A stretch of DNA of 64,000 nucleotides from Candidatus Heimdallarchaeota archaeon (GCA_030603365.1 JAUVXV010000006.1:32001-96000); one strand, 5' to 3'; numbered from the stretch's first letter, positions 7,597 through 64,000 are shown. The notes: generated from the sequence alone by a model not told the origin. Made by a program: numbers and translations.

Positions 7597-8736
7597 ATGT
7601 CCTGGCTAAAGAAAAAACTGTTTAAGAAGAAAATTTCTATTGCTGTTATAGGAGTAGGAAATGCAGGATGCAGAATAGGTGATAAACTTGTTCACCATCT
7701 AAGAGAAAGTAGAATAACTGTCAAGTCATTAGCTATTAATCAGAGTGACAACTTTGATCCTAAGGTGAATAACTTCGCTGACCATTATTGGTTTGGTTCA
7801 AAAGACTCACCATCTTCAGATTATGAACTAGAAAGAGTTTTAGAACAATTAACTCAAAATGAACAACAATTACAGGATCATATTGAAAAGGTTCTTTTCT
7901 ATAAAAAACATGATAGAAGAGATGTGGAAGATTTAGCTCTGCATTTAATTGTTGGAAGTGGTGGAGGGGCTGGTAGTGCTGGTGCTATGAAGGTTAGTAA
8001 GATTATTGCTGAACAAACTGGAGTTCCCCCTACTGTTATTTTTGTTATCCCAGAGAAAAATGAACCATCACTAGTTCAATATAATTCAGCTAGAGCTCTT
8101 CACTATCTAGGATTTGATTATCAAGGTCCTAATTGTCCAATAATTCTTTTTGATAATGATAAATTATTGAACTTATTCAAAGAAGAAACTATTGAAATAG
8201 CCTTAGAAAAGAGCAATGAGTTCTTAGTAGATTCTTTAACAACAACAATACTAGCTGCACTCCAAGAAAGTACTCACGAAGAATTCAACGCAGATTTAAC
8301 TGATTTCTTTCAATCGTTCACAGAAGAAGCAAGGGGTCTAGGAGTAATTATTTCTTTAGACAAGGAATTTGAATCACTAGAAAAAGCACAGAGTATTAGG
8401 TTCTCAGATTTATTCTTTAACGAACTTGATGAGAGTTCAAGTCTCACAGCTGACATAACAAGAGCAAAACTTGGATTTCTAGCAATTACTTCCCCAACAA
8501 CTTATCAAGCTACATTTGAGACAAGAAAGATTGTTAAGAAATTCGAACGAGGAAATATTAAAGTATCTCTCAATTCTATTGATGAACCTATTTTAACTAT
8601 AAGAGGGGTAATTACAGGAATTCACCCAGATTATGTTGAAAGGTTCTGGGAAGTGCTAGAAAAAGGTAGAGATAGTCGTAAGAAGGTTGTAGAGACAGAA
8701 GAGAAACTGAAGCAAGCTTATATGAAACTTGAGTAA
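7597..8736 (+). CDS. Divergent tubulin/FtsZ/CetZ-superfamily GTPase
   Basis: IAVIGVGNAGCRIGD (T1), GSGGGAGSAG (T4 signature variant), VIPEKNE, ILFDND, FNADLTD (T7). Basic amphipathic N-terminus MSWLKKKLFKKK. Confidence 0.88.
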   Translation: MSWLKKKLFKKKISIAVIGVGNAGCRIGDKLVHHLRESRITVKSLAINQSDNFDPKVNNFADHYWFGSKDSPSSDYELERVLEQLTQNEQQLQDHIEKVLFYKKHDRRDVEDLALHLIVGSGGGAGSAGAMKVSKIIAEQTGVPPTVIFVIPEKNEPSLVQYNSARALHYLGFDYQGPNCPIILFDNDKLLNLFKEETIEIALEKSNEFLVDSLTTTILAALQESTHEEFNADLTDFFQSFTEEARGLGVIISLDKEFESLEKAQSIRFSDLFFNELDESSSLTADITRAKLGFLAITSPTTYQATFETRKIVKKFERGNIKVSLNSIDEPILTIRGVITGIHPDYVERFWEVLEKGRDSRKKVVETEEKLKQAYMKLE

Positions 8737-54211: not shown

Positions 54212-57200
54212 GTGGATTTAGTCAAATGGAATGAAAAAAATGAATCAGAAGAGCCTGCACTAAAACTTCTAGAACAACTAGGATATCTAAGAAGGTTAGC
54301 TGATGAACTCACTAATTTATCATCAGAAGCTGAAAGAACTTCACTTAGGCAAGTAATTCTTTTAGAAACTCTTAAGCAAAAAATGAAGGATCTGAATCCT
54401 TGGATAGATGACACCAATATTAAGAATATAATTAGAGATTTAACTATTGTTTCTACATCCAGTCATACTGAATCCAATGAGCTAATCTGGCAATATTTCT
54501 CTAAGAAAGATAAGCTCTTTGTTGATCAAGACTTCAAAGACGGCAAAGGTCGTCGCAAGAGAGGAGTCACGTTAATTGATTGGGATAATCCAGAGAACAA
54601 TGATTTCACTGTTACTGATCAATTCAAAGTCAATGCTCCTAAAGGCAATCGTATTCCTGATATTGTTGTTTTCATTAATGGTCTACCTTTAATTGTCATC
54701 GAGTGTAAGAGTCCTATAATTACTAATCCTCTCACTCAAGCCATTCGTCAAGTACGAGAATATCAAAAAACAATTCCCAAACTCTTTCATTACAATCAAA
54801 TTATCATTGTTACTTCTGGACAATCTGCTAGATATGGTGTTATTGGTAATTCTTATGAAGAATACAAATCTTGGAAAGAACCTTATCCTATCAATATCTC
54901 AGAACTAGAAGAGATTGTTAAGAAGACAGGTAGGAAAAATCCTTCTCCTACTCCTCAAGATATCACTCTTTACGGTTTGTTGGAAAAACGAAATCTCCTA
55001 GATCTCATTCGTAATTTCATTATTTACGAAACTAGACATGGAAAGAAAGTAAAGAAAATAGCTCGATATCAGCAATTCCGAGCTGTTAACAAAACTGTGA
55101 ACAGAATACTTACTGAGAAAGATGTTCATCAAAGAGGTGGGACAATCTGGCACACTCAAGGTTCAGGTAAATCCCTTACTATGCTCTTTACTGCTATAAA
55201 GCTTAAAAGAGAAAAATCTCTTATGAATCCTCTTCTTGCCTTCGTTACTGATAGGATAGATCTTGTCAGACAACTCAGAGATACTTTCGATAATTGTGGT
55301 TTTTCAAATCCACAAAAAGCTAAGAATGTTGATCATCTGCAGGAATTAGTCAAAACAGGACAGGGGATTACTATTTTTACTACTATCCAGAAATTCCATA
55401 CTCGAGATGCTGATAGACGAACAGGCATTTCTAGAACTGGGATGGTTTTTCCTGAATTAAACAGTGATGAAAATATTATTGTTCTTGTTGATGAAGCTCA
55501 TCGTTCTCAATACAAGTACTTTGCAATTAATCTGAGAAAAAGCATGCCTAATGCAGCTTATATTGCTTATACTGGAACACCTTTAGCCAAAAATGAGAAA
55601 AACGAAAGAATGACAGTTGGTAAAGGAAAAACTGTTCGAACCTTTGGCTCATTCATAGATATTTATGATATCCGTCAATCTGTTGAAGATGAAGCAACTG
55701 TCAAGATTCTATACGAAAGTCGATTGTCTGATCTTCGCTTGGAAGGAGAAACCATTGATGAAATCTTCGAGAGAGTATTTGCAAATTTAACAGTTGCAGA
55801 ACGCGAGAAGATCAAGAATAAGTACGCAAACGTTGATGCTATACTTGCAGCTGAAGAACGAATTAAGAGAATAACTCTAGATATAGTTGAACATTACACA
55901 CAGCATATTTTACCTAATGACTTCAAAGCTCAGGTTGTGGTAAATAGTAGAGAACTAGCTGTTAGATACAAGAAATACCTTGAACGATTTAATGCCCCTG
56001 AATCTGTTGTGATAATATCTGCTAATCCTCGATATGATGAGGAGTTAAAGAAGAAATATGAAGTTGATTTTGTAACTGATAAGTCTAAACAAGATTTAAT
56101 GATTGACCGATTTAAAGATCCTGAAGACTCATTGAAAATTCTTGTTGTTTGCGATATGCTAATCACTGGTTTTGATGCCCCAATCGAGCAAGTCATGTAC
56201 TTGGATAAATCTTTAAGAGAACACACTCTGCTTCAAGCTATCGCAAGGGTTAACAGAACCTATGAAAATAAAACTCATGGTCTAATCGTTGATTACTATG
56301 GTGTCTCTAACAATCTTGAAGAGGCTTTAGAAATCTTTGATAAACCAGATATAGAAGGTTTCATGAAAGATATTAAGACCGAATTACCCAAACTTGAGCA
56401 ATATCATCGCAAAGCTATAAGCCACTTTGAGGGATTTGATTTAACTGATTTGAACAATTGTGTTTTAGTTTTGGAACCTGAGGATACTAGGGCTAGTTTC
56501 CATCATGATTGTAAGAAATTTGCACAAACCCTAGATATAGTACTACCTGATCCTGCTGGAGAGAAGTACTTGCCTGATCTTAAGAAACTTGGAGAGATAG
56601 TTATAGCTGCTCGTAATCGTTTTAGAGAAGAAAGTCTTGATATTGTAGGTTTTGGTGGTAAAGTACGAGAGATTATAGATGAACACATTCGCGCAACCAA
56701 GATAATCCAACTAGTTGAGCCTGTTTCTATTTTATCTGACAAATTCAATGAAGTTCTTGAAGCTCTGAAAGATGAAAAAGCTGTCGCAAGTGAGATGGAA
56801 CATGCCATAAAACATCAAATCACGATTAAGGTTATAGAAGACCCGGCATTTTATACGAGTTTAAGAAAAAGACTAGAAGAGATAATCAAAGAGTATAAAG
56901 AGCATCGAATAAGTCTTGCTGAAAAGATAAACAAACTCAAAGCAATTGCTCAAGATATAAAAGCTAGACCTGATGTAGCAAAATTTCTAGGTTTGAATAC
57001 AGCTGAGATGGCCTTCTATAATATTTTCAAGAGAGAGTTAGAAGAAATAGAAATAAGTGATAGCAGAGAGATAGTCAGGTTTACTTATGAGACCCTGGAG
57101 AGTATAGAACCCCTAGTCTCAATCGTTGATTGGCATCTCAAATCAGATATTCTAAGACAAATTAGAAGAGCCTGTAAGCAAAAGTTCTTTGAACTTCAAG

Positions 57201-57286
57201 AGGAATTTCCAATTCCATCAGAACTACATCAAGCTCTTTCGCAACAGATTGTTGAATTAGCTAAAGTCCACTTTGTTGCTAGTTAA
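54212..57286 (+). CDS. hsdR: Type I R-M restriction subunit
   Basis: PDIVVFINGLPLIVIECK, HTQGSGKS, DEAHR, YTGTP, TGFDAP, QAIARVNR. Confidence 0.96.
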   Translation: MDLVKWNEKNESEEPALKLLEQLGYLRRLADELTNLSSEAERTSLRQVILLETLKQKMKDLNPWIDDTNIKNIIRDLTIVSTSSHTESNELIWQYFSKKDKLFVDQDFKDGKGRRKRGVTLIDWDNPENNDFTVTDQFKVNAPKGNRIPDIVVFINGLPLIVIECKSPIITNPLTQAIRQVREYQKTIPKLFHYNQIIIVTSGQSARYGVIGNSYEEYKSWKEPYPINISELEEIVKKTGRKNPSPTPQDITLYGLLEKRNLLDLIRNFIIYETRHGKKVKKIARYQQFRAVNKTVNRILTEKDVHQRGGTIWHTQGSGKSLTMLFTAIKLKREKSLMNPLLAFVTDRIDLVRQLRDTFDNCGFSNPQKAKNVDHLQELVKTGQGITIFTTIQKFHTRDADRRTGISRTGMVFPELNSDENIIVLVDEAHRSQYKYFAINLRKSMPNAAYIAYTGTPLAKNEKNERMTVGKGKTVRTFGSFIDIYDIRQSVEDEATVKILYESRLSDLRLEGETIDEIFERVFANLTVAEREKIKNKYANVDAILAAEERIKRITLDIVEHYTQHILPNDFKAQVVVNSRELAVRYKKYLERFNAPESVVIISANPRYDEELKKKYEVDFVTDKSKQDLMIDRFKDPEDSLKILVVCDMLITGFDAPIEQVMYLDKSLREHTLLQAIARVNRTYENKTHGLIVDYYGVSNNLEEALEIFDKPDIEGFMKDIKTELPKLEQYHRKAISHFEGFDLTDLNNCVLVLEPEDTRASFHHDCKKFAQTLDIVLPDPAGEKYLPDLKKLGEIVIAARNRFREESLDIVGFGGKVREIIDEHIRATKIIQLVEPVSILSDKFNEVLEALKDEKAVASEMEHAIKHQITIKVIEDPAFYTSLRKRLEEIIKEYKEHRISLAEKINKLKAIAQDIKARPDVAKFLGLNTAEMAFYNIFKRELEEIEISDSREIVRFTYETLESIEPLVSIVDWHLKSDILRQIRRACKQKFFELQEEFPIPSELHQALSQQIVELAKVHFVAS

Positions 57287-57324
57287 TATATGAAAGTGTC
57301 TATATACTATTAAGAGGAACTGCC

Positions 57325-58071
57325 ATGCCTAAGACTTCTCCAAAAATCAGTTTCGGTGAAACGAGTTTTGCTTATTCTATCATTAGAACAAATAGAACTA
57401 CAATAGCTATCATTGTTGAACCTGATGGTAGTGTTATAGTTCGAGCTCCTTATGATCTATCTGAAGAAACCGTTGAAGAAAAAGTAAGAGAGAAGAGGAG
57501 ATGGGTAGCAGAAAAACTCACTAAAACTGATGAAATAGTTAAACCTGTACCTAAGAGAAGAGAATTAGTAAGTGGGGAAAAGATCAAACTCAAGGACAAA
57601 CTAATCAGATTGAAAATTCACCATTTCGATAAAAGAAGAACTGTAGTAGAATTAGACAAAAATACTCTTCATATCTATATTAATAAGGATTTGAATGAAT
57701 TAGAAAGAAAAGAGGAATTGAAGAAAGTTCTCTTGAAATGGTATAAAGAACAAGCAAAAGATATCATTTCTACTAGAGTTGATAAATTCTCAAAATCATT
57801 TGATCTTAAACCAAACGGGATAGTTATTAGAAGTCAACAACTGAGATGGGGGAGCTGTACAAAGAATAACATATTGAACTTCAATTGGCGTATTGTAATG
57901 GCGCCTATTTCAGCAATAGATTATATTGTTGTTCATGAATTGTGTCATCTCAAAGAACCTCTTCATTCAATTGAATTTTGGAATTTGCTAGAATCACACT
58001 TCCCTGAATACAATAAATGGAAAGAGTGGTTAAGAATAAATGGTTTAACTCTTGATTTAAAATTTGAATAA
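57325..58071 (+). CDS. DUF45/YgjP-like (M48/SprT-like) zinc metallo-hydrolase associated with type I R-M
   Basis: RWGSC, DYIVVHELCHL, H...FW. Confidence 0.9.
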   Translation: MPKTSPKISFGETSFAYSIIRTNRTTIAIIVEPDGSVIVRAPYDLSEETVEEKVREKRRWVAEKLTKTDEIVKPVPKRRELVSGEKIKLKDKLIRLKIHHFDKRRTVVELDKNTLHIYINKDLNELERKEELKKVLLKWYKEQAKDIISTRVDKFSKSFDLKPNGIVIRSQQLRWGSCTKNNILNFNWRIVMAPISAIDYIVVHELCHLKEPLHSIEFWNLLESHFPEYNKWKEWLRINGLTLDLKFE

Positions 58072-58148
58072 TAGATGAAAACTAAGAAATTATTCTTAAT
58101 TTCTACTATATTTTTATAAACCTGAAAACAATATTAACTCTGATTAAA

Positions 58149-58694
58149 GTGTGTTTCAAACAAATTAAAAATATCTTGAAAAAGAAGAATAAACCAAGTA
58201 TTTATGATTACAATCTTACAGATAAGGAATACTATGGTAAGAGTAAAAAATCGTATGAAAAAGATAAATATCAAGATCACCTAATTGATCAATATCGGAT
58301 ATTAACTGATAAAGCTGATAGAATAAGTGATAAAAGAGCAGTTACAAATGGTTTTTTTCTAACACTAAACACAATTATTGGAACAGCCAGCATAGTTCTA
58401 ATTGACATAATTAGTAATTCTTTATTCATAATACCTCTAAGTGTAATTGGCATACTGTTCTCATTGCTTTGGTTTGGTATGATAAGGAATTATAAGAAAT
58501 TAAATACAGCAAAGTTCAATGTAATCAATAAGATTGAAGAGAAATTACCTATAAAAGGCTTTTATGCTGAATGGGAAATTTTAAAGAAAAAGATGAAATA
58601 TAAAGGATTATCAGAATTTGAAAAATGGATTCCTTGGTTCATTATACTAATGTATTGTGTGTTAATAGGATTCTCTATTTATTCATTTGTATAA
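58149..58694 (+). CDS. Small TM protein, putative pore-forming defence effector
   Basis: QY....ADRISDKRAVTNGFFLTLNT, 2+1 TM, YKKLNTAKF.VI..IEEKLP. Resembles the TIR-associated family annotated as RipA-like octameric membrane protein (from memory). Confidence 0.65.
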   Translation: MCFKQIKNILKKKNKPSIYDYNLTDKEYYGKSKKSYEKDKYQDHLIDQYRILTDKADRISDKRAVTNGFFLTLNTIIGTASIVLIDIISNSLFIIPLSVIGILFSLLWFGMIRNYKKLNTAKFNVINKIEEKLPIKGFYAEWEILKKKMKYKGLSEFEKWIPWFIILMYCVLIGFSIYSFV

Positions 58695-58750
58695 TTGAAT
58701 CTCATAAATAGCTAGAAAGTTTTTTATTTACAGTATCTATTAGCTAAATT

Positions 58751-59152
58751 ATGGCAATGATTTATGTTTGCTATGAGAGTGGAGATATAAAATATAGAAA
58801 TGATTTCGCTAGCATGATGCTTAATCAAAATAATCAAATTACAGATATACCTGTTACAGATAAAGAAAATAAACGTCCAGAAGGTCCTGAAGCTGTTAAG
58901 AGATATATTTTAAGCTTAATGAGAGATTGTGCTGCAGTAGCTGTATTAGTTGGTAGAAACACACACAATGCTCCGGTTGTCCGATGGGAACTTGAAGTGG
59001 CAAATTCTCAAAACAAGAAAATACTCGCGATTAAAATTCCTACTACTTCAGGAGGACTTCCTCCTTTATTAAAAACGATTGGAATTCAAACAATTGAGTG
59101 GGATCCACAACTGATTGAGGAAGAATTATCCAGATTATTCGGTAGAGAATAG
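58751..59152 (+). CDS. ThsB-like TIR domain protein (DUF1863/MTH538 type)
   Basis: IYVCY, VLVGRNT, VRWELEVA (catalytic Glu), KKILAI. Confidence 0.82.
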   Translation: MAMIYVCYESGDIKYRNDFASMMLNQNNQITDIPVTDKENKRPEGPEAVKRYILSLMRDCAAVAVLVGRNTHNAPVVRWELEVANSQNKKILAIKIPTTSGGLPPLLKTIGIQTIEWDPQLIEEELSRLFGRE

Positions 59153-59423
59153 AATAAATGTGATTGATATGATGGATAAGAAATGTATGTTTCGAAAACC
59201 TGAATCGCCTAAATGTCAAGAAGAAGGGTTCAATTGTTTAGAACTGAAAATGTTTCATCCTCTAACTGAGAGAAATTCAAAACAAATTTGGTTTTTATGT
59301 GATGAGCACCTAGATAAATTTCTTAAGACAGATGGGAAGGATTGGATTAAATGGAAGAAGGAGGAGAAAAACAAAATGAGCATTAGCTATGTATTGGATT
59401 TCAAAATTAATTATCTACTCTAG
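59115..59423 (+). CDS. Small Cys/His-rich hypothetical protein
   Basis: C-x7-C-x6-C ... CDEH; fills the gap within the operon; start uncertain. Confidence 0.5.
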   Translation: MRKNYPDYSVENRINVIDMMDKKCMFRKPESPKCQEEGFNCLELKMFHPLTERNSKQIWFLCDEHLDKFLKTDGKDWIKWKKEEKNKMSISYVLDFKINYLL

Positions 59424-59444
59424 AGAATCCAACTGAATAATTAG

Positions 59445-60044
59445 GTGCAAAGAATGGAAAAAGTAGTAGTTTTGATGTCAGGTGGCATAGATTCTTTTCT
59501 AATGTGTAAAATTCTTTCTGAAAATTATGAACTATATCCCCTTTTTGTGGATTATGGGCATTTAGCAGCTAATCAAGAACAAAAAACTGTTTTGAAACAA
59601 ATAAAATTTCTCAATCTTAATTCAGCAAAATTGGTTAAAATCCCTGACTTAGGACTTAAAAATAGTTTAACTTTAGAAGAAGAATATAAAGATGATTTTT
59701 ATCCAGGAAGGAATCTTCTCTTGCTTATAATAGCTGCACAATTCGCCATAGGAATGAATATAGAAAGGATTGCTTTGGGTATAATAAGGAGCGAAAGAGT
59801 TTTTTCAGATTCCACTTCGTTTTTCATTCAAAGAGCTGAACAATTAATTTCTGATAGCGTTAATAAACAAATGACTATTTTCACTCCAATTTCTGATTTA
59901 CAAAAGAATGAAGTTGTAGAGTTAGCTAAAGAGCTAGAACTACCTCTTAGTCATTCCTACTCTTGTCAAAAAGGAGATTTGAAAGAATGTGGCAAATGTC
60001 TTTCATGTCTGGAATTAGATAAAGCTATTTTAGAAAATAAATGA
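59445..60044 (+). CDS. queC: QueC-family PP-loop ATPase (Cap9/QatC-like context)
   Basis: MSGGIDS, VDYG, YPGRN, SYSC-x7-CGKCLSC zinc site. Confidence 0.9.
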   Translation: MQRMEKVVVLMSGGIDSFLMCKILSENYELYPLFVDYGHLAANQEQKTVLKQIKFLNLNSAKLVKIPDLGLKNSLTLEEEYKDDFYPGRNLLLLIIAAQFAIGMNIERIALGIIRSERVFSDSTSFFIQRAEQLISDSVNKQMTIFTPISDLQKNEVVELAKELELPLSHSYSCQKGDLKECGKCLSCLELDKAILENK

Positions 60045-60120
60045 TTTTCATTCTTTTGGACAGAAAGATTTTAATTTTATAATTAGTTATATTATTAAAC
60101 AAAAAGGATGTGGAGGATTA

Positions 60121-61017
60121 ATGAAAATACTTAAGCAATTCGGATATGGGAGAATAGTTGAATTGAAAATTAATAATCTTCAGAGATACACTCCAATGTT
60201 TATTCCTGCTTTATCGAGTGCAAGTAGAAAAAACGATTTCTTAAATGCTAAAAGATGGGTAAAAAGAGTAAAACCTGTGGATTTCTTAATTTCAGCTTAT
60301 GATTACATAGAAGATTTTAAGGATCTAAAGATTAAGAAAGATTCTTTTGTAACATTAGACAGTGGGGGTTATGAGCTCAGAAACATCATAAAACCAAAAC
60401 AATGGACTCTTGATTCTTATTTAGAGATAATTGATAAAATCCATCCAGATATGATTATATCCCTTGATCATCCTGAAAACAACTTTACTCAATCAATTAG
60501 CTGTTTTGAGCAAATAAAAGAAAGCTATTCTAACAATTCTTATCTACAATTCGTAATTGCTGAAACTAAAAAAGAAAAGATCCCAGATTCAGTAATAAAT
60601 ACTTTACAACTGATTGAACTAGATGTTATTGGGATTCCAGAAGTGAATCTAGGAAAAAATCTAGAAGAAAGATTACAAAGTATTCAGTCTATAGTTAAGA
60701 TTCTTAGCTCTATGCAGAATCCAACCCTTCTACATATCTTAGGCTGCAGTGATCCTGAGATGATTAAGAAATATGCATTATCTGGAGCAGATATATTTGA
60801 TGGGCTAGGTTGGTATAGACAAGTTGTTGATATTTCAGATAATGAAAACTTTAAATTCACTAATTTCGCAAATTTGGATAGTGATTGTGAATGTAAAGCA
60901 TGTAAATTAACACTAACTGAAGACTATGAAGAAAAGGTTTTTGCTCACAACTACTTAGCTTATTATGCTTTGATGGAACAAATAAGAGAGATGATTATCA
61001 AAGGAAGTGAAATCTAA
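60121..61017 (+). CDS. tRNA-guanine transglycosylase-like protein (Cap10/DpdA-like)
   Basis: TPMFIP, LDSGGY, SLD, LHILG, GADIFD, CECKAC...HN zinc site. Confidence 0.85.
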   Translation: MKILKQFGYGRIVELKINNLQRYTPMFIPALSSASRKNDFLNAKRWVKRVKPVDFLISAYDYIEDFKDLKIKKDSFVTLDSGGYELRNIIKPKQWTLDSYLEIIDKIHPDMIISLDHPENNFTQSISCFEQIKESYSNNSYLQFVIAETKKEKIPDSVINTLQLIELDVIGIPEVNLGKNLEERLQSIQSIVKILSSMQNPTLLHILGCSDPEMIKKYALSGADIFDGLGWYRQVVDISDNENFKFTNFANLDSDCECKACKLTLTEDYEEKVFAHNYLAYYALMEQIREMIIKGSEI

Positions 61018-61538
61018 TGGGTGGAGGAAGCAGTGGAGTATATAATCCACCAAGTAGATCGGCGACATATGGAAAAGATTTAAAGAATCAAGCAAATGAA
61101 AGTATAAGAAACACAGAAATGAGATTGCAAAGGAGACTTACTGATTTTTCCTATGAACCCCGTAATGTGTTCATCAGCTTTCATACTGTGGATGAAATGC
61201 AAGTAAAGCTCTTAAGATACCAAGCAAAGGATGATAGATTCGATTTTGCTTTTCGGGATTATTCAGTTCAAGAACCTTTCTCAGATAAATGGAAAACGAG
61301 AGTAAAAGAGAGAATAAAGAGAAGTGATTATACTATTTGCTTGATTGGTGAAGATACACATTCTAGAGAAGCTGTTAATTGGGAATTGAATCAAAGCTAT
61401 AAAATGGATAAGAAGGTAGTTGGTGTTAGAATTTATCGTGATGCAAAACACAAAATACCAGAACCAATAAAGAGAAATAAATCAAAAGTAGTTGACTGGA
61501 ATCTTGGAGATATCATGGAGCAATTATCTGAAGAATAA
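61017..61538 (+). CDS. ThsB-like TIR protein with Gly-rich N-terminal extension
   Basis: MGGGSSG start; RNVFISF, DYSV, CLIG..T, VNWEL; TAATG coupling to the TGT gene. Confidence 0.88.
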   Translation: MGGGSSGVYNPPSRSATYGKDLKNQANESIRNTEMRLQRRLTDFSYEPRNVFISFHTVDEMQVKLLRYQAKDDRFDFAFRDYSVQEPFSDKWKTRVKERIKRSDYTICLIGEDTHSREAVNWELNQSYKMDKKVVGVRIYRDAKHKIPEPIKRNKSKVVDWNLGDIMEQLSEE

Positions 61539-61572
61539 AATTCAATAAGAAAAAAGATGATTCACAAACTTA

Positions 61573-62922
61573 TCAAAAATGTAAGTTTAAATCATCAAAA
61601 TTGGCAAGATATAGATTTTCCTTTGTTTGTTTGAGTATGCCCTCCTTAGTAAAAGAATTTAATACATTATAATAGGTTGAATAATTCAGAATATTTATTC
61701 CGAAAGGAAAGCTTGCTGCTATAATTTCAGATACTGAAGCTTTTTTAACAGTATATAAATAAAATAAGATAAACTCTTCTACAGTTTGTGTCAAATTACT
61801 CTGAATATGATGCCATTGAGGAACATCATCTTCTGAAGGAATTTGAAGAGCTTTGATCTCTTTTCTTACTACCATTGACCAAAAGTTTTTCACTTGTTCA
61901 TCTGTTGGAAAACCATTGTGAAAATCTTGAAAACAATCTTTCACATGGAGAAACATAAAATAGTAAGCATTTATAGCTCTTTTAATTTCGTAAGCCATAC
62001 TCGTGTATTCTTCCCAAGATGCAGATGAAACATTAGATTCATGAAATAGTGCTCCTCTAACTTTAAACCATCTATCAATATTTCTAAGATAAAAGATTAC
62101 TGTTTTCTCAACATCTAAGGGGATTGTTTTATATTTTTCTTTATAGAGCTCTATGAGTTTTTTAAATTGTATAATTACTTTATCCTTGATTGGCATATAG
62201 GTATTATCTATCGCATCTAGAACATTGTTGTGCACCTGATTGAGCACTTTCTGTTCTGCTTGTATTTCTCCTTCCTTTATTATTTTCTCTATTGCTTGCT
62301 TAGAAAGTTCTTTCATTTTTTCTCGAAAAATACACCAAATACTTGTAGGAGCTTCTATATTTTTTAGCTTAGTATTAATAAAAAGTGATTCTAATGCTAT
62401 GACAATATTCTCAAAAAATTCTATTGAGTGTTTCTCATTATCTAGTGCAATACGGTATTTTCTTAATGATCTAAGAAATCTTTGTATAGATTCATTATCC
62501 TCTTCTTCACTTAATTTATCAATTTTTGTTGTTAGAGTGTGATACAAAGTATGATAATCTTGTGGAAAAACCCTTTGACTTCTATCATAAGAAATACGAA
62601 AACCACCTTCATTTTCTTTTCTTACTAGTGGCATAAAAACTTGAAATGAAGAGGAAAAACCTAGAGCAAAGGCATCCATCAAAGGTGAAAAACTTTTCAT
62701 CACTTTCTTTGTTCTTTCATCACCTGGGATGAAATCTTCTACCATCATTGTTTCTTCATCTTTTTTCAATTTCATCTTAAAACTAATATTGCGTTGAGGT
62801 CTTTCTTCAGTTTGGTATACAATAACTTCAATTTTGGAGAAATCATAAAAGCCTTCAGGAGGTAAATTACCAAAAGGATAACTTCTGAACTCACCTATCA
62901 AAGGACGTTTCTCATCAGACAT
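61573..62922 (-). CDS. ApeA/MAE_28990-like HEPN protein
   Basis: IVIALESLF followed by the R-x4-H motif VRGALFH; possible C-terminal wHTH. Confidence 0.65.
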   Translation of the reverse strand: MSDEKRPLIGEFRSYPFGNLPPEGFYDFSKIEVIVYQTEERPQRNISFKMKLKKDEETMMVEDFIPGDERTKKVMKSFSPLMDAFALGFSSSFQVFMPLVRKENEGGFRISYDRSQRVFPQDYHTLYHTLTTKIDKLSEEEDNESIQRFLRSLRKYRIALDNEKHSIEFFENIVIALESLFINTKLKNIEAPTSIWCIFREKMKELSKQAIEKIIKEGEIQAEQKVLNQVHNNVLDAIDNTYMPIKDKVIIQFKKLIELYKEKYKTIPLDVEKTVIFYLRNIDRWFKVRGALFHESNVSSASWEEYTSMAYEIKRAINAYYFMFLHVKDCFQDFHNGFPTDEQVKNFWSMVVRKEIKALQIPSEDDVPQWHHIQSNLTQTVEEFILFYLYTVKKASVSEIIAASFPFGINILNYSTYYNVLNSFTKEGILKQTKENLYLANFDDLNLHF

Positions 62923-63568
62923 AGTAACTAGAGTAAATATAGAAATATAAATCTACTCTCTAGCAATCTTTTTAGAATAATGTTTTACACCCTATTATCT
63001 TCCATTTTGGTTATGAATTAAGAATATGATGAACTTTCAGATTCTGATAAACTATAAAAAGAATAGGTCCACTTGTTCAAGATTATCTAAAAACCAGTCT
63101 AGAATCGCTAATTGATGAAATTGAGAATATAATCAGTAATTCTTGTTATGGTTATGATGATATTGCTAAAGCTATTGCAGAAAAAATTGATGGAAAAACT
63201 ATATCTTCTAAACAGTGGTCAACTCTTCTGGACCTATTAATAGTTCAGTAAATGGTGCTGATCCAGATATGGGAGTTTATGAGGAATTGGAAAGTAAGGA
63301 TTATATTTTTGAAGGTTTGAAAATAGCTTATGTTATTATAATCAGTGGTAATATTACAATCCTCATGTAAGCACCTATTCATGTAGAAGTGAAGATTAAT
63401 AATGTAGTGATTAAGAAATGAGCGGTAGTACCTTGAAGAGAATTCCAGAACTATTTATATTTATAAAATCAAATGCAAACTAATTTATCAACATGTTATG
63501 ATTCTTACTTTGGTGCAGAAAAGAGCATTTTTCAACAATGGAGACTTAACAAAATTGGAAAAAACTGC

Positions 63569-64000
63569 TCACAAGCTATTAAATGTTTGAATTAGAATAT
63601 TTAGAATGAATTCCAAATTTTTTTTGTACTTTTTCATATCATCTTTAGTTAAATCGACTTCTATTGTATGAGCACTACTATTTCCTGCCTCTCGATATTT
63701 GTTAAGTTCTTTAATTAAATCATTGTTCAGGGGAGGAAAAACATCAAAATCCTTTTCTTTAATTTTTGAATCTAAATTCTTTATTATAGTGTTAAGTGGT
63801 TTAAACTGTTTTCTATCCGTATTAAAATACAAATTAACATTATCCTTTGTTTTAGAACCATATTTTTTTCTTAAAATTCCAATTACAAGATTTTCAATCA
63901 ATTTTCTTAGAAGAATTAAAACTGCTGAATATATTTCATATGTATATGCCAAATTTATGTCTTTTTGTAGCTTACGATAGAAATCGCTTGGATAAGTATG
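63569..64000 (-). CDS. C-terminal part of a DUF4145-like HEPN protein, truncated by the window edge
   Basis: Frame is open to 64000 (HTYPSDFYRKLQKDINLAY...); LLRKLIE and R...NSSAH. Confidence 0.6.
   Translation of the reverse strand, partial: HTYPSDFYRKLQKDINLAYTYEIYSAVLILLRKLIENLVIGILRKKYGSKTKDNVNLYFNTDRKQFKPLNTIIKNLDSKIKEKDFDVFPPLNNDLIKELNKYREAGNSSAHTIEVDLTKDDMKKYKKNLEFILNILIQTFNSL

Follow-up and report, generated by a model that had tools for sequence, protein, structure and literature searches.

A Thoeris-type operon of a Heimdallarchaeota archaeon with a predicted deazaguanylation acceptor at the glycine-rich start of a TIR protein

The six-gene operon and the extension of its second TIR protein

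The window analysed here, by which we mean the whole stretch of DNA at its full length of 64,000 nucleotides, comes from a Candidatus Heimdallarchaeota archaeon (GCA_030603365.1, JAUVXV010000006.1:32001-96000), and its positions 58149-61538 hold six co-directional genes on the + strand. In order, these encode an 8xMP-family membrane protein, a first TIR protein (TIR1), a small Cys/His protein, a Cap9-like protein, a Cap10-like protein, and a second TIR protein (TIR2), which carries a glycine-rich N-terminal extension. From their sequences we predict that the six genes form a Thoeris-type TIR signalling defence operon equipped with the Cap9/Cap10 pair known from type IV of the cyclic oligonucleotide-based antiphage signalling system (CBASS): a ThsB-type TIR gene on the one hand, and Cap9-like and Cap10-like genes on the other, are both found in this one operon. 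By analogy with type IV CBASS, we further consider it likely that TIR2 is deazaguanylated at its N-terminus. The features are listed below with their lengths in amino acids (aa) and, in brackets, the family matches on which their assignment rests.

58149-58694, + strand: 8xMP-family membrane protein, 181 aa (Pfam PF24838, 1.6e-35)
58751-59152, + strand: TIR1, a ThsB-type TIR without a tail, 133 aa (PF08937, 1.2e-11, from residue 5; PADLOC ThsB models)
59169-59423, + strand: small Cys/His protein, 84 aa from the Met at 59169 (alignment of four loci)
59445-60044, + strand: Cap9-like QueC-family enzyme, 199 aa (PF06508, 1.2e-31; PADLOC CBASS QueC, 4.1e-34)
60121-61017, + strand: Cap10-like TGT-fold protein, 298 aa (PF01702, 6.3e-10; PADLOC CBASS TGT, 2.2e-31)
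61017-61160, + strand: residues 1-48 of TIR2, its N-terminal extension, with a disordered tail rich in Gly and Ser (about 1-13) and then a helix (14-39)
61017-61538, + strand: TIR2, a tailed ThsB-type TIR, 173 aa (PF08937, 2e-16, residues 52-141; PADLOC ThsB, 3e-14)

The open reading frame (ORF) of TIR2, whose N-terminus is MGGGSSGVYNPPSR and opens with MGGGSSG, begins within the stop codon of the Cap10-like gene in a TAATG overlap (TAA 61015-61017, ATG 61017-61019). An in-frame TGA at 61008-61010, two codons 5' of this ATG, means that no earlier start is possible; an AGGAAG stands about 10 nt 5' of the ATG; and the next in-frame methionine, M34, is a glutamate in a homologue of 87% identity (P0002), so that M34 is not the conserved start. 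Because the ThsB_TIR Pfam domain begins only at residue 52, residues 1-48 constitute an extension to the TIR domain. A sequence-only reading made earlier had described an extension of about 48 aa that starts MGGGSSG on this TIR and is lacking on the other, with a start fixed by the overlap with the TGT stop, and both statements hold: the first by the Pfam boundaries in TIR2 and in TIR1, the second by the TAATG overlap together with the TGA upstream of it.

Such a start is rare in this genome of 33% GC: of its 3427 ORFs that are 100 aa or longer, only that of TIR2 has GGG after its first start, and eight have GG. In an AlphaFold2 model of TIR2 made with 30 homologues, residues 1-18 have a predicted local distance difference test (pLDDT) score below 50, a helix spans residues 14-39, and the TIR fold begins at residue 49. 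Within the TIR domain, the WE motif (W122, E123) does not vary in one TIR alignment (A3), and E123, the catalytic Glu, is likewise invariant in a second (A1). A search of the PDB with the extension, taken as 50 residues, matched no chain, not even CdnD, up to E = 10. The start itself invites comparison with type IV CBASS, where Cap9 conjugates 7-amido-7-deazaguanine to Gly2 of the CD-NTase, on an extension of the form M(G/S)G(G/S)GG (bioRxiv 10.1101/2025.04.06.647259); MGGGSSG fits this acceptor motif at positions 1-4 and has Ser-Ser instead of Gly-Gly at positions 5-6. The sequence-only reading had treated conjugation by both Cap9 and QatC as established, which is correct for Cap9 (bioRxiv 10.1101/2025.04.06.647259) and only partly so for QatC: the N-terminal glycine motif of QatB is essential, and the QatC reaction is called open (PMC13279940).

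Linkage of the glycine-rich tail to Cap9-like and Cap10-like genes

A protein search returned 120 homologues. Where the extension is at least 25 aa long, 94 of 101 metagenomic homologues begin with MGG or a near variant, which in some of them lies a few residues in owing to a miscalled start, and an MGG-type start is seen in none of the 18 homologues that have no extension. Eighty genome loci, mostly archaeal, were fetched, of which one (L035) was left out for having no TIR motif, and the other 79 were classed by their neighbours.

Class A, 35 loci: Cap9-like and Cap10-like genes present, 32 of the loci having an Ogg-HhH gene (Cap11) in between; Gly-rich start in 35/35
Class B, 19 loci: only a gene of about 295 aa directly upstream; Gly-rich start in 17/19, with basic tails of the form MGGGxRGxRRxY
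Class C, 25 loci: no TGT-fold neighbour; Gly-rich start in 0/25 (one locus, L019, ends at a contig edge, which makes its classing unreliable)

The extensions of class A measure 31-52 aa, and position 2 is occupied by G in 31 loci, by S in two, by A in one and by T in one. The sequence-only reading had proposed, as a check on itself, that TIRs linked to queC should conserve MGG and that unlinked ones should not; the comparison of linked loci with those that have no TGT-fold neighbour bears this out, whereas class B, which is also tailed in 17 of 19 cases, does not conform to it. On a tree of the TIR domains there are three well-supported independent contrasts (five on the best tree), all in the same direction, the clearest being a Nitrososphaerota subclade that is nested among tailed and linked relatives and has lost the tail and the cap genes together. 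From Pseudomonadota to Asgard archaea, homologues whose overall identity to TIR2 is 32-65% keep the Gly-rich tip, and the residues just behind it vary freely; we regard this conservation of the tip as a stronger argument than the association of loci.

MGGGSSG also fits the G2/S6 pattern of eukaryotic N-myristoylation sites (MGxxxS), and the Gly-rich start could be read as having no partner-specific role at all, being instead a flexible linker, a lipidation-like signal or a miscalled start. An Asgard host that has actins, and an effector that is a membrane protein, would suit a lipidated TIR. We nevertheless hold this to be highly improbable, since the in-frame stop and the absence of M34 from a close homologue fix the start, no homologue without a TGT-fold neighbour has a tail, bacterial homologues keep theirs, and no N-myristoyltransferase is known in archaea, although no search for one was made in this genome.

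As for the genes to which the tail is linked, the Cap9-like protein is matched by the PADLOC model for CBASS QueC at 4.1e-34 versus 5e-07 for QatC, and its best match in the PDB is Cap9 (9nto_B, 2e-14), canonical QueC following at 3e-9. Its PP-loop residues S12 and S17 align with S18 and S23 of Cap9 and are invariant, as are the Zn cysteines, in 31 TIR-linked QueC homologues. The Cap10-like protein is matched by CBASS TGT at 2.2e-31 versus 0.004 for DpdA, its only match in the PDB is Cap10 (9ntn_A, 4.5e-11), and its D80, H205 and D227, which align with D73, H226 and D248 of Cap10, are invariant in 29 TIR-linked homologues. The TIR-linked QueC and TGT homologues so compared (29-31 sequences) span 22-53% identity. 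In type IV CBASS, defence is abolished by mutating D73 or D248 of Cap10, or S18/S23 of Cap9, and H226 is the catalytic partner of D248 (bioRxiv 10.1101/2025.04.06.647259). By analogy, the Cap9-like protein is predicted to be an ATP-dependent ligase that would join 7-carboxy-7-deazaguanine to the N-terminus of TIR2, and the Cap10-like protein is predicted to be a receptor, possibly a transferase, for the modified tail. Searches of the genes at 57325-63952 with Pfam and PADLOC gave no match to Qat models other than QatC, to an ATPase or to a TatD nuclease, and none of the nine ORFs scanned there was matched as a CD-NTase; within the operon, no Dpd model of PADLOC besides DpdA gave a match.

Both proteins nevertheless belong to families that modify nucleic acids (PF06508 and PF01702), and a putative restriction-modification system lies directly upstream, so that the QueC/TGT pair might instead modify DNA in the manner of Dpd, or tRNA, and merely lie beside an independent Thoeris pair whose Gly tail is unrelated to it. 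We judge this very unlikely. Besides the gap between the DpdA and CBASS TGT matches, and Cap10 as the sole PDB match of the TGT-like protein, the host genome already encodes a canonical QueC as well as a TGT-family protein of 538 aa (230 bits), translation of the TGT-like gene is coupled to that of TIR2, and gains and losses of the tail coincide with those of the helper genes.

Deazaguanylation of TIR2 would also depend on a supply of the base. On contig 1 of the host genome, folE2, DUF366, queD and queC are consecutive and a QueE-like radical-SAM gene adjoins them, and 7-carboxy-7-deazaguanine is therefore plausibly available. The same genome contains a 216-aa ORF (C13:121764-122414, + strand) that is matched by a Cap9-like hidden Markov model (HMM) at 4.5e-11 and is absent from the list given by the Pfam QueC search.

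Predicted capture of TIR2, proposed mechanism and contrary evidence

A complex of the QueC-like (Cap9-like) protein with TIR2 was modelled from alignments of 31 and 30 rows, respectively, together with three controls. It reached an ipSAE interface score of 0.70 (runs 0.74, 0.70 and 0.66), versus 0.02 for the best of the 3 controls; in calibration, 58 of 80 solved complexes and 2 of 110 mismatched pairs scored this high, a comparison that is only rough because the alignments were custom-made. At least 71% of contacts recur between the runs, and the partner pLDDT is at least 70. The confident interface joins residues 22-41 of TIR2, in the extension helix, to QueC residues 5, 20, 23-24, 27, 107-108, 142-152 and 156-164. 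By PDB alignment, the QueC side of this interface lies at or beside the equivalents of M29, L104 and S135 of Cap9, which were the residues mutated to break binding of helix alpha-1 of the CD-NTase (CdnD) (bioRxiv 10.1101/2025.04.06.647259), and the model therefore reproduces the known mode of substrate capture.

On the analogy with type IV CBASS, we propose that methionine aminopeptidase would remove Met1 of TIR2 and so expose Gly2, and that the extension helix (about 14-39) would dock on the Cap9-like enzyme. The latter would adenylate 7-carboxy-7-deazaguanine drawn from the folE2/queD/QueE-like/queC pathway of the host, and the amine of Gly2 would attack the adenylated base to yield an N-terminal 7-amido-7-deazaguanine (NDG) tag. 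The tagged tail may then be bound in the nucleobase pocket of the Cap10-like protein, with TIR2 being held in check, primed or transferred as a result. Upon infection, TIR2 would make an ADP-ribose-derived signal in response to which the 8xMP membrane effector would open, and the untailed TIR1 would act outside NDG control. That the 8xMP protein is the effector answering the TIR-made signal is probable from its sequence and position: a homologue adjoins the TIR in 58 of the 79 related loci. A literature search on the 8xMP family returned unrelated matches only.

The relatives of class B (L002-L004, L006, L008, L011, L012, L014, L015, L020, L033, L037, L041-L046 and L048) represent a second type of operon. 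Their operons consist of a TGT-fold gene of about 295 aa, located about 800-1100 nt 5' of the TIR, then the TIR with its MGGGxRGxRRxY tail and then an 8xMP gene, often with a CARF/wHTH regulator upstream and with no QueC within 8 kb. In a profile-profile comparison (hhalign), the class B gene matches the Cap10-like set with a probability of 88% (E = 3e-6, 249 columns), and it has lost the equivalents of D80, H205 and D227. The complete 0.8 Mb genome of one class B locus, L033, gave no QueC-family match, and two other class B genomes gave partial PP-loop matches only.

These MGGG-tailed relatives, paired as they are with a TGT-fold protein that lacks the catalytic equivalents and with no QueC nearby, would be expected if tail and helix were a docking handle only, through which TIR2 is bound and regulated by the two helper proteins, Cap9-like and Cap10-like, with no 7-deazaguanine attached or with a different group in its place. 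A complex model that places only the helix with confidence, and a QatC chemistry that is still called open (PMC13279940), point the same way. Such an arrangement seems to us unlikely all the same: the PP-loop serines, the Zn cysteines and the catalytic and base-binding residues of Cap10 are invariant across 29-31 homologues, which would be unexpected of pure scaffolds, and the deazaguanine pathway is present in the host.

In the genome from which the window derives, a 361-aa protein encoded at C1:124573 (+ strand) starts with MGGIRRQRKK, which is reminiscent of the basic tails of class B. An HMM of the class B TGT-like gene matched only the window's own TGT-like gene in this genome (E 0.0086), so that no class B TGT-like gene lies near this protein.

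Several results weigh against the deazaguanylation of TIR2. A literature search found no experimental data on a TIR as a deazaguanylation substrate. Cap11/OGG, which is present in 32 of the 35 QueC/TGT-linked loci, is absent here: there is no PF22175 match in the 89%-complete genome, and an HMM made from 32 TIR-linked Cap11 genes gives a best E of 0.098. On the side of supply, the QueE-like gene matches at 46.5 bits, falling well short of the curated threshold for the single QueE model that was used. With regard to linkage, the raw Fisher test of tail versus helper genes gives about 1e-17, a value inflated by shared ancestry, and a sign test on the independent contrasts gives p = 0.25, the contrasts being too few for significance. 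An exception to the Gly2 rule is found in locus L095, where the tailed TIR (8001-8519) directly follows the TGT-like stop, has no alternative start and begins with MNSGG, from which Met1 should be retained. In the complex model, residues 1-10 of TIR2 are not among the confident contacts; the structural check that the sequence-only reading had set itself looked for the N-terminus of the TIR in the active site of QueC, and the model docks the helix and passes its controls but does not place the glycine tip there. Moreover, because the Cap9-CdnD complex has already been solved, the pass of the model shows likeness and not binding. Finally, since class B tails pair with a degenerate TGT-like gene and the L033 genome is without QueC, recognition of the tail can exist without deazaguanylation, and a Gly tail alone is no proof of it.

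Relation to known systems and surroundings of the operon

Yirmiya et al. (bioRxiv 10.64898/2025.12.03.692087) report Thoeris operons that carry cap9, cap10 and cap11, together with AlphaFold 3 models in which ThsB of Pseudomonadales SP163 has an interface predicted template modelling (ipTM) score of 0.62 with Cap9 and 0.79 with Cap10. The proposal of the sequence-only reading that conjugation would here be extended to TIR enzymes is accordingly not a new idea, having been predicted in that work. The operon described here shares with theirs a ThsB-type TIR beside Cap9-like and Cap10-like genes, the TIR being predicted to bind Cap9 in both, and their example organism, which is represented among our loci by L076, has a TIR that is 34% identical to TIR2 and aligned over the whole extension. 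In contrast, the present operon has no Cap11/OGG and its host is an Asgard archaeon; the usual order is Cap10-Cap11-Cap9-TIR-effector, whereas here it is effector, untailed TIR1, Cys/His protein, Cap9, Cap10 and tailed TIR2; and the effector is of the 8xMP family rather than SLATT as in L076. This layout, an 8xMP effector and a glycine motif of ThsB are not described in the main text of that preprint.

With type IV CBASS (Wassarman et al., bioRxiv 10.1101/2025.04.06.647259; PDB 9ntn and 9nto), in which Cap11 is optional and occurs in about one third of operons, the operon has in common the PP-loop serines, the equivalents of D73, H226 and D248, a substrate with a Gly-rich start and a disordered tail followed by a helix, and a predicted docking surface on QueC that corresponds to M29/L104/S135 of Cap9. 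It differs in that the tailed enzyme is a TIR and not a CD-NTase, so that the signal would derive from nicotinamide adenine dinucleotide (NAD) and not be a cyclic oligonucleotide, and in that the adduct has been shown there and is predicted here from sequence and model. QatABCD is set apart by its QatC, which carries extension domains that the 199-aa Cap9-like protein does not have.

The layout recurs in L001 (Heimdallarchaeota), in L090 and in L095/L096. The nearest relative of the operon lies in a Heimdallarchaeota metagenome-assembled genome, which, like the strong actin homologues and the 538-aa TGT-family gene of the host genome, points to an Asgard host. The features of this subtype are an untailed TIR1 (found at the same place in L001, L090 and L095/L096), the small Cys/His protein, Cap9, a Cap10 that abuts the tailed TIR2, 8xMP and the absence of Cap11; the TAATG overlap of the Cap10-like gene and the tailed TIR is found also in L090. 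Tentatively, and with less confidence than we attach to the tagging of TIR2 itself, we suggest that this may be a distinct conserved architecture of Asgard type, OGG-less, with two TIRs, a Cys/His mini-protein, a coupled Cap10-TIR2 and NDG tagging of one TIR only, in which the Gly tail and its TGT-fold receptor would form a portable core module and deazaguanylation an optional layer. The notion of such a core module stems from the relatives that have a degenerate TGT-like gene only and from the one QueC-less genome.

That a protein can be deazaguanylated has been demonstrated biochemically with the CD-NTase of type IV CBASS, and the same is proposed for QatB. If a TIR is indeed a substrate, the Cap9/Cap10 module would be a portable switch for unrelated immune signalling enzymes, and it would be placed in Asgard archaea, alongside TIR signalling, which eukaryotic immunity also employs. 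The presence of a tailed and an untailed TIR in one compact operon offers a natural internal control, and the QueC-less relatives raise the question of what role a glycine tail has without a tagging enzyme.

Among the remaining members of the operon, the small Cys/His protein is listed as an ORF starting at a TTG at 59115, its 84 aa being counted from the Met at 59169. C6, C16, H30, C44 and H47 are invariant in an alignment of four loci of the operon subtype, and on this pattern the protein is probably zinc-binding; it has no Pfam family, and its Atlas matches are unnamed archaeal clusters only.

The 449-aa ORF that follows the operon on the other strand (61573-62922, -) was considered as a further member; no family matches it, none of the 80 related loci has a homologue, and it probably lies outside the system. 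In L001 (7700-8638) and in L092, a partial contig (588-1526), a second TGT-like gene stands immediately downstream of the tailed TIR; beyond it, on the opposite strand, come a gene of roughly 310 aa and one for an 8xMP protein. Directly upstream of the operon, 54212-58071 (+ strand) is occupied by a 1024-aa ORF, a putative type I restriction enzyme, and then a YgjP-like metallopeptidase (PF01863, 3.2e-56), and YgjP homologues are also found near the TIR operon in loci L067 and L071. At the end of the window, 63569-63952 (- strand) encodes a DUF4145/HEPN-like protein (PF13643, 0.0024, below cut-off). Elsewhere in the host genome there are three actin-family genes with matches of up to 450 bits (C1:309238-310347, C13:60843-61955 and C2:78936-80171).

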